From: Promethearchaeota archaeon
Lineage (GTDB): Archaea > Asgardarchaeota > Odinarchaeia > Odinarchaeales > JBHLKK01
Direction of reading: 5' to 3'
Assembly: GCA_048939465.1 (NCBI GenBank)
Contig: JBHLPL010000020.1
Span: 1 to 6,523, forward strand
DNA length: 6,523 nt
The stretch's first letter is position 1. The number at the start of each line of letters is the position of its first letter. The position numbers were made by a program, and so were the translations under genes. The notes beneath the pieces are model-generated. The model saw nothing but the letters and a program-made list of their open reading frames with translations. It was not told the DNA's origin and ran no database searches. Positions 2,639-6,523 of the stretch are shown here, in pieces.

Positions 2639-5230
2639 TTAATCTGATAAGATGAAAGGAGTCTCAATGGATTTTATTAGATAGTCAATATCTTCTGCAA
2701 CACCCTCACTATCACTTACTTCGGCTATTCTCTGAACGGCCTTCAGGCTATGGATCAGACTGTCAAACCAATTGAATATATCTCCTGGATATGCATAGAT
2801 TTCATATTCTTTGAGAAGTTGGTAGGAAATTCCCTTTGGAGTCAGACCGTTCATCCTAAGGTCAATCAGCTTCTTAGAAAGGGTTATTTGACCACAATCA
2901 CAATAAGGGTTATCTTTGCATCTGCAATCAAAAATCTCAAGGACCCATTTGGAGAAGATCCTCAGTGTTCTTCTACTAATCTTGCTAGATCTCCTTCGTT
3001 TGTGCCAGATCTCCATGGTGTTCAGAACCCAGTCTGCAAATAACCTGCTTGGAAAGTGAGTATTGAATGCCCTACTCAGCTCAGCTACAAGATTATCCGA
3101 AAGATAGGCAGATTTGAAGGGTTCGAGTTTTATCGCCAATTCCAAGGGATCGGTTTTCCCTAGATTCTTGTGCACAAATGTTATGTCACTTGGCTTTAGG
3201 AATGAAATGGATCCCATTTTCCCCAAATCTGTCGGGAGGATCTTTCCGTTTTCCTTTTTGATGAATCCTCGCTTTTCAAGGAACTTCAAGATATCTGCCA
3301 AATCTATTGAGGGACCGAGCATGAGATTGTAAACCTTGTCCAGCGCGCTTATAGATAGAGATTCCTGAGTGCATATTGATGCCAAAACCTGCTCAGCCAC
3401 AGATTCGAATTCAGGTTCCGAGACTACATCTTCCACTTCACCGTCAAGCAACTCAACAGCAATCTTATCTTCGGTGACATTCTGCTTGCCAAAGTATTTT
3501 CTTCCTGGCTCCACAAGCAGAACAACCTTACCCCTATCATGCTTCCCCAATCTACCTGCCCTACCGAGCATTTGATTAAACATTGCATTGGTAAGGTAGT
3601 CTTTCCCCATCATCAAAGACTCAAATACAACTTGACTGACAGGTGCGTTGAATCCCGCACCCAGGGCGTAAGTAGTTACAAGGGATTGATATTCGCCCTC
3701 TGCAAACAGCTCCTCAGTACTCTTTCTCCTGGCATAAGTCATACCAGCATGATAAGATGTCACTCTCAGGTTTCTCTTGCTCAGCCAATCAGATATCTCC
3801 TGAGTTTTCCTTCTTGAATTGGTGAAAACAAGCGTTTGACCCGGATACCCACTGCTACTGATGTGCTGATTTTCTATGTGAATTAGCTGATCAATTGCCT
3901 TCAGCTTCTCTGATTCTGAAACAGTCACAATTAGGTGTCGTTCCAGGGGAACTGGTCTGCCTTTGTGTTCAACGAGTTTTAGATTCAGCTTTTCGGCCAG
4001 CTGTTTGGGATTCCCAACAGTCGCGGATAACCCGATAAACTGGCAATTCGGGTATTGGCTTTTCAGCCTGCTTATCAAACCATCCACTTCAATACCCCGG
4101 TCTTCATCTGCAAGCATTTGGATCTCATCGATTACAACTGTTCCGATATCGCCGATATCTTTAGAGTTACCTGATCTCAGCAGAAAATCGAACCCCTCAT
4201 ATGTGCCTACGATGATGTCTGCTTGACTTATATCGCTGTCGACAACAACAAGTTCTTCTTCCCCAGTATCGATCTTTGACATTCCTACGCGAATCGCTGC
4301 TCGAAGTCCCAAGTCTTCATACTTCCGTCTGAACTCTTCATATAATTGATTCGCAAGCGCAACAAGAGGGACGAGAAAGCAGAATGTTTTTCTTTTGAGT
4401 GCCCTAAAAACGCCAGCAAGTTCTCCGATCAAGGTTTTCCCGCTTGACGTTGCCGAGACTATGAGGATGCTCTCACCCTCGAGCAACCCATTCCTGATCG
4501 CTTTAACTTGAGCAGGGAGAAGCCAATCTATCCCTTCTCTCTGCCAGATCTCCTTGAGTTCTTGAGGAAGATCCAGATGAGCAATTCTCATCTCTTCGGG
4601 CGGCTCAAACGGAGGGATCACATCATAAAGCGTAGCACTCGGCTGATTCACATTCACACCTGAAGCAAGAAAACCAAGAACTCTTTCTACACTTCTATCA
4701 CGCTTCAGCATACGATCTACATGACCAGATAGTCTCCTATTAACATCTATTCCACGATACTGGAGCTCTCTTATGAGTCCATTTCTGGCGCAGCGAAGGC
4801 AGACTTTTTCCCCTTGAAATTCATAATTCTTCTTGCCCAGATCTGTTATTCTGTAACCATCAAAAAGGCAATATCTGCATAGATTAACCTCTCTAATTTT
4901 GGACATATCAATCCGGAAATCCCTAAACATCGAGCGAAGCTCCTTAACAAACGGAGGAGCGACATTCTTAGGGATCAATACCTGTTTCGAATTACGTATT
5001 AGGTTCATAAACTCTTTGGGATCAAGGAAAGTCTGGTTCCCTTTATATTCGAGCCAGTATCTTTCGGGTCTGAGTCTTCCTTTTTTATAGTGGAATTTAG
5101 CTCTACCAGAGTAAACAGGAATATTGCCAACTAGCCCTTTTCGTGGTTGAATCAATTCAATATCTATTTCATCGCTTTTGTTCTTGTAATTCAATATTAC
5201 AACAGAATATTTTCCAGAAAAAGCTTTCAT
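2639..5230 (-). CDS. Archaea-specific superfamily 2 (Ski2-like DExH/D) helicase, COG1202 type with probable C-terminal DUF5814-like domain, 863 aa
   Basis: Q-motif region LLPAQ, motif I ATSSGKT (4433-4453), Ia LVPLVALANQ, Ib VGTYEG, II DEIQ (4118-4129), III SAT, RPVPLERH, IV VFTNSR, YHAG and VI QMLGRAGR. N-terminal CRYC...CLRC (4790-4879) and C-terminal CRCKDNPYCDC (2894-2926) Cys clusters match the family as I recall it. Confidence 0.92.
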   Translation of the reverse strand: MKAFSGKYSVVILNYKNKSDEIDIELIQPRKGLVGNIPVYSGRAKFHYKKGRLRPERYWLEYKGNQTFLDPKEFMNLIRNSKQVLIPKNVAPPFVKELRSMFRDFRIDMSKIREVNLCRYCLFDGYRITDLGKKNYEFQGEKVCLRCARNGLIRELQYRGIDVNRRLSGHVDRMLKRDRSVERVLGFLASGVNVNQPSATLYDVIPPFEPPEEMRIAHLDLPQELKEIWQREGIDWLLPAQVKAIRNGLLEGESILIVSATSSGKTLIGELAGVFRALKRKTFCFLVPLVALANQLYEEFRRKYEDLGLRAAIRVGMSKIDTGEEELVVVDSDISQADIIVGTYEGFDFLLRSGNSKDIGDIGTVVIDEIQMLADEDRGIEVDGLISRLKSQYPNCQFIGLSATVGNPKQLAEKLNLKLVEHKGRPVPLERHLIVTVSESEKLKAIDQLIHIENQHISSSGYPGQTLVFTNSRRKTQEISDWLSKRNLRVTSYHAGMTYARRKSTEELFAEGEYQSLVTTYALGAGFNAPVSQVVFESLMMGKDYLTNAMFNQMLGRAGRLGKHDRGKVVLLVEPGRKYFGKQNVTEDKIAVELLDGEVEDVVSEPEFESVAEQVLASICTQESLSISALDKVYNLMLGPSIDLADILKFLEKRGFIKKENGKILPTDLGKMGSISFLKPSDITFVHKNLGKTDPLELAIKLEPFKSAYLSDNLVAELSRAFNTHFPSRLFADWVLNTMEIWHKRRRSSKISRRTLRIFSKWVLEIFDCRCKDNPYCDCGQITLSKKLIDLRMNGLTPKGISYQLLKEYEIYAYPGDIFNWFDSLIHSLKAVQRIAEVSDSEGVAEDIDYLIKSIETPFILSD

Positions 5231-5397
5231 CTTAGACGCGCCCTAGTTGAATACGAATTAGAAATAGCTAGAAAGCCAAACTTACGATGGTTCTATAGCT
5301 TATAAACATTACGATGTTGTTATCCCGATAACTGCAATCGTATCGATGGAGAACTGCGAGGTTTTGCTGGGAAATGGCGATTATCGCAACAATATTT

Positions 5398-5427
5398 TTA
5401 TATATTAGGGATTTCGCATTATATATT
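5398..5427. promoter_or_regulatory. Tandem TATA-like elements in the helicase/7TM divergent intergenic region
   Basis: TTATATATT occurs at 5398-5406 and again at 5419-5427, 21 bp apart. A further TTTATAAG on the minus strand lies at 5299-5306. Confidence 0.4.
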
Positions 5428-5534
5428 GAGAAAGCCGTAAATTGCTGGTTTATGGAAAGAAAAACGTCTGATAGATAGAGAAGGTTGGAGTTAATCATTG
5501 CTGATCACGACAAGGTTTTTCAGACAATTGGAAA

Positions 5535-6467
5535 GTGAACTACTTGATGATTCAAATAACTGAGGTTTTAATCACTTTATTAAGCGCAACCGTCTGGATA
5601 CCTTGGGTTGTACTGACAATTACTGTCTATCGGTATTACCGTCGCCATCGAAGTAATCCCATCCTTACCATAATATACTGCAGTATGTCTTTAACCATCG
5701 CTCTATACTTCTTTTCATTGAACGTAATCTTGGGTGCCTTTGCGTTAAGTTCAGTTATTTACATCAAGCTATTCAGCATATTCAACCTGTTAGGCGTCCT
5801 TTTCTGGATGCGTGCTGTGATCCATCTGGTCAACCCCGCTCACAAAGAATGGATAATACCACAGTTTGTGTACTGGCTAGTCATAATCGTTACTGAGTTT
5901 GCAATAATTGGTAACCTATACCCTCTAAGCGATATCACAGTCCTTCATGATGCACTGATATTCGGATATCTTGCCGTGAGCTTTAGTGTATCCAGTTTTT
6001 TTCTAATCCGCCTTAATCGAAAGCTAAGAAATAGAACGCTAAAGAGGCACCTGAAGATGTTAATCGCAGGGACTTTGTTCCCGAGCCTAATACACTTTTT
6101 CGCCGATACTTACACGATCAATTGGATTCTTCCTGCAATTTCCCCTTGTTTTGCTGCAATCTTCGCTTGGCTCTTCGGCTTGCTCATCTACTTCGGTGTA
6201 GTATTTAGAGGCATAGAAATTCTGAAGCTATTCTCATTTGAAGGCGCAATCAGCCTGGATCCAACTATAAGGGATTTTCGAGTTTATGCCCTTCTAACCG
6301 ACTACACTTCACCAGAAGGAACCTGTAAGTTTTATGATACCGGTTTGAGATCGAAGTGCCGTTTAGACCCGCTGGTCTTTCGGAGAGATTGCAGAGGAGT
6401 CGTCTTCATTGAAGGTTTTGTTTGCCACCAAATAAGGTATCATATAGACAAAGAGGAAGACAGATAG
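5535..6467 (+). CDS. Seven-transmembrane membrane protein (7TM receptor-like) with a C-terminal Cys-rich cytoplasmic domain; function unknown
   Basis: Seven hydrophobic segments at about aa 11-32, 43-65, 75-97, 107-128, 137-158, 174-193 and 198-222. Basic loops RYYRRHR (after TM1) and RLNRKLRNRTLKRHLK (TM5-6) imply N-out/C-in. The roughly 85-aa polar tail carries four Cys. The start is GTG 5535 or in-frame ATG 5547 (AGTGA at 5534-5538 could be the RBS). Confidence 0.82.
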   Translation: MNYLMIQITEVLITLLSATVWIPWVVLTITVYRYYRRHRSNPILTIIYCSMSLTIALYFFSLNVILGAFALSSVIYIKLFSIFNLLGVLFWMRAVIHLVNPAHKEWIIPQFVYWLVIIVTEFAIIGNLYPLSDITVLHDALIFGYLAVSFSVSSFFLIRLNRKLRNRTLKRHLKMLIAGTLFPSLIHFFADTYTINWILPAISPCFAAIFAWLFGLLIYFGVVFRGIEILKLFSFEGAISLDPTIRDFRVYALLTDYTSPEGTCKFYDTGLRSKCRLDPLVFRRDCRGVVFIEGFVCHQIRYHIDKEEDR

Positions 6468-6523
6468 CTTCGACGCTTGATTCACAAAAGGTTTTTAACT
6501 GGAAATATAGACCTTTAATTGTT

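Follow-up and report, generated by a model that had tools for sequence, protein, structure and literature searches.

How might a seven-transmembrane (7TM), receptor-like protein pass on a signal when it carries no kinase, cyclase or chemotaxis output? The window, by which we mean the whole 6,523-nucleotide stretch of DNA analysed here, raises this question with a gene whose predicted product ends in a short tail bearing four cysteines. We found that this tail, the sole cytoplasmic part predicted for the protein, is a conserved and unnamed four-Cys domain, and that the same genomes use it alone and on other scaffolds. Our results show that the domain is real and undescribed, as judged from its independence, its conservation, the architectures in which it occurs, its predicted cytoplasmic location and its lack of a named relative.

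Layout of the receptor-like protein and its cysteines

The gene encodes a protein of 310 amino acids (Table 1), to which database proteins found by protein search are 72-100% identical. One database copy (P0002) has 306 amino acids, a length that fits a start at the ATG at 5547 rather than at the GTG at 5535. The 7TM protein contains six cysteines in total, and between residues 242 and 310 the only ones are C264, C275, C286 and C297 (C1 to C4). A direct read bore out the claim of the initial annotation that the codons of these four lie exactly 33 nt apart; all are in frame with the open reading frame. In 200,000 shuffles, any arithmetic progression of four cysteines with a step of 2-29 arose 58 times. 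The annotation had also held that the DNA is not a tandem repeat, and we reached the same result: Tandem Repeats Finder returned nothing in 6200-6523, and a tandem-repeat or slippage origin of the spacing is rejected on that ground. Among the four 11-residue units of the tail, cysteine is the sole residue in common. We conclude that the even spacing of the cysteines in the tail is real and beyond chance.

The full-length AF2 model (pLDDT 74.8) consists of seven transmembrane helices, a short helix and then the four-Cys domain. The short helix (residues 227-234) lies in the linker, which is the least confident part of the model and falls below a pLDDT of 50 at 234-239. Because the lysines and arginines of the predicted loops sit inside (4, 1 and 8, for a total of 13) and none sits outside, the model with its positive-inside count places the four-Cys tail in the cytoplasm. 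The stand-alone copies of the domain described below have no visible signal peptide, which agrees with this predicted placement.

Fold searches with the membrane part revealed resemblance to GPCRs (TM 0.45-0.56, E about 1e-2) and, with TM 0.5-0.6, both to uncharacterised archaeal 7TM proteins and to proteins that bear the annotation 'Histidine kinase N-terminal 7TM region'; a Pfam scan gave no match to any 7TM family at the sequence level. Seven helices, an N-out/C-in arrangement and a fold-level TM of 0.45-0.6 are thus common to the modelled membrane part and to HisKA_7TM-type or GPCR-like sensors. In contrast to those sensors, the protein has no kinase, cyclase or MCP output: the four-Cys domain alone follows the membrane part. 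We class the membrane part as a predicted 7TM receptor-like (HisKA_7TM-like) region, at the level of fold only. The model and the fold searches agree with the initial annotation: the protein is predicted to adopt a 7TM receptor-like fold, with the tail as its sole domain in the cytoplasm.

Table 1. Coordinates of the receptor-like gene, the parts of its product and the loci of tandem paralogs. Positions are those of the window, except in the last line.
Feature	Residues	Coordinates	Strand	Basis or remark
Gene for 7TM protein with four-Cys tail	310 aa	5535..6467	+	Open reading frame; GTG start at 5535
Seven transmembrane helices	8-222	5556..6200	+	AF2 helices; N-terminus outside, C-terminus inside
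Linker after TM7	223-241	6201..6257	+	AF2; least confident part of the model
Four-Cys domain	242-303	6258..6443	+	HMM envelope 239-303; alignment A2; AF2
Helix alpha-1	246-254	6270..6296	+	Contains near-invariant R249 and invariant A252
C1	C264	TGT 6324-6326	+	Direct read; invariant in A2; followed by near-invariant Y267
C2	C275	TGC 6357-6359	+	Direct read; invariant
C3	C286	TGC 6390-6392	+	Invariant; C-x-G motif with invariant G288
Short beta-hairpin	291-296	6405..6422	+	Turn at invariant G294
C4	C297	TGC 6423-6425	+	Invariant; directly precedes the last helix
C-terminal helix alpha-2	298-309	6426..6461	+	AF2; starts right after C297
Tandem paralog loci		G003:C1:1291000-1292271; G004:C3:1290-2502; G041:C266:7-1444; G007:C21:4693-5293

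The tail is an autonomous, portable domain

A search of the same genome revealed two further copies of the domain. One (L002:919-1950, + strand, contig C126) encodes a paralog of 343 aa, likewise a 7TM protein, in which a multi-helix membrane region is joined to the tail; it is 32% identical overall to the query, and its cysteines are spaced 10/11/10 with a fifth cysteine in addition. The other (L003:1477-1728, - strand, contig C96) encodes a stand-alone four-Cys protein of 83 amino acids that is 46-48% identical to residues 239-301 of the query. Two other genes flank this stand-alone gene on its own strand: 13 nt upstream of it is one for a 480-aa protein that is hydrophobic at its N-terminus and has a transmembrane anchor at its C-terminus, and downstream of it is an aldehyde:ferredoxin oxidoreductase-like gene.

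A whole-protein search of 1.84 billion representative proteins returned 28 matches, most of which align to the tail only. We identified 62 distinct instances of the domain from several Asgard lineages, alone or joined to 7TM, TPR or other regions. The architectures, read from the sequences of the 28 matches and from open frames in related genomes, are diverse. By itself the domain makes up proteins of 79-124 aa. It stands at the C-terminal end of 7TM proteins that are 273-343 aa long, follows a 7TM region and a middle domain in a protein of 447 aa (P0015), and follows other N-terminal regions in proteins of 202 and 230 aa (the latter P0028). It also precedes C-terminal extensions, in proteins of 170 and 175 aa, and a single transmembrane helix, in a protein of 126 aa. 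Two proteins of about 540 aa (L021:72-1716 and L022:84-1695) end in a divergent four-Cys segment with a spacing of 10/10/11, which matches the domain HMM with E about 1e-5; the N-terminal part of one of them, L021, contains TPR repeats (TPR_12, E 5e-22). The four-Cys segment of these TPR proteins may represent a distant branch of the family. Together, these results demonstrate that the tail, about 65 aa in length, is a domain in its own right that is portable across architectures. Fusion to other domains, which the initial annotation had suggested looking for, is realised with 7TM, TPR and other regions, next to the stand-alone copies.

Tandem paralogs are frequent: paired genes for 7TM proteins with the domain occur in three genomes, and paired stand-alone genes in one more (Table 1). 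For two of the regions joined to the domain, the one at the N-terminus of P0028 and the one in the middle of P0015, a roadblock/longin identity was considered on the basis of language-model feature scores of 0.85-0.92 in the ESM Atlas. It remains a lead only, as hhalign against the genome's own Robl_LC7 proteins gave a probability of 1% and Pfam gave no match.

The domain is also the part of the protein that is conserved. In an alignment of 28 copies (alignment A2), A252, C264, C275, C286, G288, G294 and C297 are invariant and R249 and Y267 nearly so, with a mean column identity of 39%. When the full-length protein is aligned, all seven invariant columns and 11 of the 12 nearly invariant ones fall within the tail. 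Distant 7TM homologs are 40-55% identical to the query over the domain, and 14-21% over the membrane region. We defined the unnamed Asgard four-Cys domain as a helix with R...A, followed by C1-(F/Y), C2, C3-x-G and G...C4, with cysteine distances of about 10, 10-12 and 10. The query conforms to this definition, with every invariant column present and a domain HMM match of E 1.8e-31. The expectation that homologs would keep all four cysteines was confirmed, as these are invariant in A2 across distant homologs.

Two other features that had caught the eye in the query are not those of the family. The first is the strict even spacing, which had been put forward as a signature. Among 57 parsed distinct copies, the distances C1-C2/C2-C3/C3-C4 are usually 10/11/10 (n=36), less often 11/12/10 (n=10), 10/10/10 (n=9) or other (n=2), and only C3-C4 is a constant distance. 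Because 10/10/10 occurs in 9 of 57 copies only, the perfect 11-residue period is, on the sequences compared, specific to the clade of the query and a stand-alone clade of the same genus. The second is the basic residue that follows each cysteine in the query, which is not conserved across the parsed copies: family-wide, C1 is followed mostly by proline (directly, in 32 of 57 instances), C3 mostly by glutamate, and C4 mostly by proline, glutamate or threonine.

Additional cysteines are common. A fifth cysteine stands at C3+4 in 28 of the 57 copies, where the query has valine, and a CC pair is present at C4 in 15 of 57. An 88-aa stand-alone protein (P0036) is the sole complete instance in which C1 is replaced; it has tyrosine there and keeps a fifth and a sixth cysteine, which hints at a shift of the ligand set between subfamilies, or reflects a sequencing error. 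Because the fifth cysteine, the CC pair and the change of C1 to tyrosine all occur, the true ligand set may differ between subfamilies.

Fold, known families and the probable metal centre

An AF2 model of residues 232-310, built with alignment A2, is confident (pLDDT 88.7, pTM 0.74). Three long loops carry C264, C275 and C286, one each, with single bridges at Y267 and C275. All four cysteines lie outside the two helices (246-254 and 298-309), and the loops score above 90 though secondary structure is scarce. Confident loops with scant secondary structure are typical of metal-organised domains, and we infer from the model that this may be such a domain.

We searched for a known family that would account for this predicted fold. 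We scanned the tail, the stand-alone protein, the paralog and the 28 aligned members with Pfam and NCBIfam and obtained no meaningful match; the best score, to zf-CCCH_UNK (E 0.056), came from one member. A sequence profile search of the PDB yielded only a chance match to eL29 (E 0.39). A Foldseek search of the PDB with the domain model found no match, and in an exhaustive wide VIA-align comparison over 48,161 chains the best Z was 2.3, against a typical best of 7-8; small domains score low in both, so that the absence of a match is not proof. Searches of the ESM Atlas with the domain model, by shape and by features, returned nothing usable. Among the AFDB clusters we found one uncharacterised protein of 153 aa with 30% identity over the cysteine region, which is probably a member of the four-Cys family. 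The literature that we searched on Asgard 7TM and Cys-rich proteins yielded no description of the domain. Several unclassified small Cys-rich archaeal domains are listed in one paper (PMC13607799), and the four-Cys domain may or may not be among them. These results uphold the initial annotation's view of the tail as a discrete domain that no library names.

The annotation had also seen a loose likeness to YkgJ, with which the query shares the character of a Cys-rich, presumed metal-binding, prokaryotic protein. This comparison did not survive: above its cut-off, the YkgJ profile (CxxCxxCC, PF03692) picks out two genuine members elsewhere in the genome (52.6 and 40 bits) but none of the three genes with the four-Cys domain. 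Even with E allowed to reach 10, Pfam scans of the domain returned no PF03692 match, and the domain lacks the CxxCxxCC motif. Likewise, a ferredoxin-type 4Fe-4S domain is rejected, as the CxxCxxCxxxCP motif and a Pfam Fer4 match are both absent.

A further general likeness is to the small Cys4 zinc modules, zinc ribbons and treble-clefs, that sit at the cytoplasmic ends of prokaryotic sensors. Small size, four conserved cysteines and a cytoplasmic position are common to these modules and the domain as modelled, as are a hairpin followed by a helix that starts from the last cysteine, and promiscuous fusion. Classical zinc sites use close CxxC pairs. In contrast, the four-Cys domain has no CxxC knuckle pair; its cysteines follow one another at intervals of about 10 residues, each on a separate loop, so that each ligand would come from a separate loop, a difference that we count against the metal reading; nor did the Pfam scans of the domain reveal a match to any zinc-finger profile. 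Relatives with C-x3-C and CC might still, to judge by their sequences, have a geometry related to that of zinc ribbons or treble-clefs. We conclude that the four-Cys domain is a new, unnamed family; it belongs to a well-known general class, that of small Cys4 modules, and its predicted fold is unmatched.

On balance, we think it somewhat more probable than otherwise that the tail is a portable, unnamed cytoplasmic domain of about 65 residues that holds one metal centre on its four thiolates and serves as the signal-passing part of a 7TM sensor. In this domain, the four invariant thiolates would bind the metal centre and thereby hold a loop-rich fold together. A single metal centre is the simplest reading because the domain combines little regular structure with four invariant cysteines in a cytoplasmic protein. 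Zn(II) would be the most likely metal and an Fe-S cluster the main alternative, with zinc somewhat likelier.

If the cysteines held an Fe-S cluster, [4Fe-4S] or [2Fe-2S], its state could gate or report on the receptor, much as in WhiB, FNR or NsrR: a change of oxidation state, or loss of the cluster through oxygen, NO, iron or redox stress, would alter the tail. The host archaea live anaerobically in sediment and are rich in Fe-S proteins, the genome occurs in mangrove and sediment metagenomes, and ligands on four separate loops would suit a cubane as well as zinc. Cys-Pro and C-x-G both occur around Fe-S ligands, which gives some weight to the frequent proline after C1 and the conserved C-x-G at C3, and about half of the members have an extra cysteine. 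However, the Pfam and NCBIfam scans matched no Fe-S family profile, a CxxCxxC-type motif is absent, there are no conserved cluster-assembly or redox genes nearby, and nothing in our analysis distinguishes an Fe-S cluster from zinc. We therefore treat an Fe-S sensor as a tentative possibility, to be taken seriously but not expected.

The cysteines might instead work without metal, as a thiol switch in which two reversible disulfide pairs sense oxidants, or through persulfide or lipid modification. The invariant cysteines are even in number, and their regular spacing loosely recalls the twin Cx9C/Cx10C (CHCH) proteins, whose cysteine intervals are likewise of about 10 residues. Twin Cx9C/Cx10C proteins are disulfide proteins with regularly spaced cysteines, which are borne on two antiparallel helices and form their disulfides in an oxidising compartment. 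The four-Cys domain does not belong with them: it is cytoplasmic and archaeal, and the AF2 model puts its cysteines in loops, not on paired antiparallel helices. The cytoplasmic placement and the strictly anaerobic hosts also argue against a switch of this kind, and a loop-rich fold predicted with high confidence usually depends on a lasting cross-link, for example a metal. Lipid anchoring in particular is at odds with the soluble stand-alone copies. We consider a metal-free thiol switch very unlikely.

Possible signalling role, distribution and genomic context

Under the preferred reading of a metal-holding domain, the tail would pass on or modulate the signal of the 7TM sensor, probably by contacting other proteins. 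It is the only soluble part of a receptor-like sensor, hence its proposed place as the signal-passing piece, and protein contacts are probable because the domain is too small and featureless for an enzyme. If metal or Fe-S binding and coupling to partners are both true, the domain would define a receptor output that is new for the lineage and, as the stand-alone copies are small and soluble, would offer a handle for finding the partners of these receptors.

A more specific version of this role would make the domain an Asgard-specific signalling adaptor: stabilised by a metal or an Fe-S cluster, it would connect 7TM receptors with soluble partners bearing the same or a cognate domain. We regard this version as unlikely. 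A related proposal is that the domain pairs with itself, in the manner of death-fold or TIR domains, and so might recruit stand-alone or fused copies to the receptor tails. Receptor-fused, stand-alone, repeat-fused and C-terminally extended forms within single genomes match the pattern of adaptor domains. However, the genomes of one family (f2) contain the 7TM-fused form only, with no stand-alone copy found, and the domain genes are not neighbours of one another save for the tandem paralogs. Homotypic pairing of this kind seems a very improbable mechanism. A complex prediction for the receptor tail, the stand-alone paralog and Zn, run without controls, gave a score of 0.01, which weighs neither for nor against it.

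A domain profile matched 44 of 400 genomes of the phylum, and the positive genomes cluster by family: in some families all sampled genomes are positive, and in others none is (0 of 135 and 0 of 31). The number of copies per genome ranges from one to six. Among members with a taxon name, the labels are Hodarchaeota, Odinarchaeia, Atabeyarchaeia and Helarchaeota, and one further member comes from a MAG labelled Euryarchaeota. With that one exception, the domain is so far restricted to Asgard archaea among its named members, the range outside the phylum being drawn from the single-sequence search of 1.84 billion representatives. All members of the family are annotated as hypothetical proteins, and the domain deserves a family entry because 62 distinct instances now read 'hypothetical protein'.

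The taxon labels of the relatives seem to disagree with their placement by order. At NCBI the nearest named relatives are Candidatus Hodarchaeota, whereas Odinarchaeia is the label of proteins from genomes placed in the same order; these genomes measure 1.3-1.4 Mb, and one is closed. Several metagenome studies of mangroves and sediments, independent of one another, contain the sequence of the window; among the sequencing runs that contain it, no RNA runs are listed.

The neighbourhood of the receptor-like gene does not point to a partner, because the neighbouring genes are housekeeping genes that vary between lineages. Its neighbours in the window encode HflX, a CBS protein, an MBL-fold hydrolase, a DEAD/DUF5814 helicase, ribosomal protein S25e and enzymes of purine synthesis. 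Those in other lineages include peptidyl-tRNA hydrolase-like genes, genes for tRNA enzymes and radical SAM genes, and no neighbour of the domain genes is conserved.

Several smaller features of the window were also observed. The helicase (863 aa, 2639-5230, - strand) has a Cys-rich N-terminal part, and the ortholog in a relative has DEAD, Helicase_C and DUF5814 domains. Between the helicase and the 7TM gene lies an open reading frame of 76 aa (5268-5498, - strand), at whose place the relative has a called gene of 95 aa without a Pfam match (L024:7600-7887). Downstream of the helicase lies a basic open reading frame of 49 aa (2397-2557, - strand), and in the relative, which is 72% identical, a called gene of 49 aa occupies the corresponding position (L024:4617-4766).
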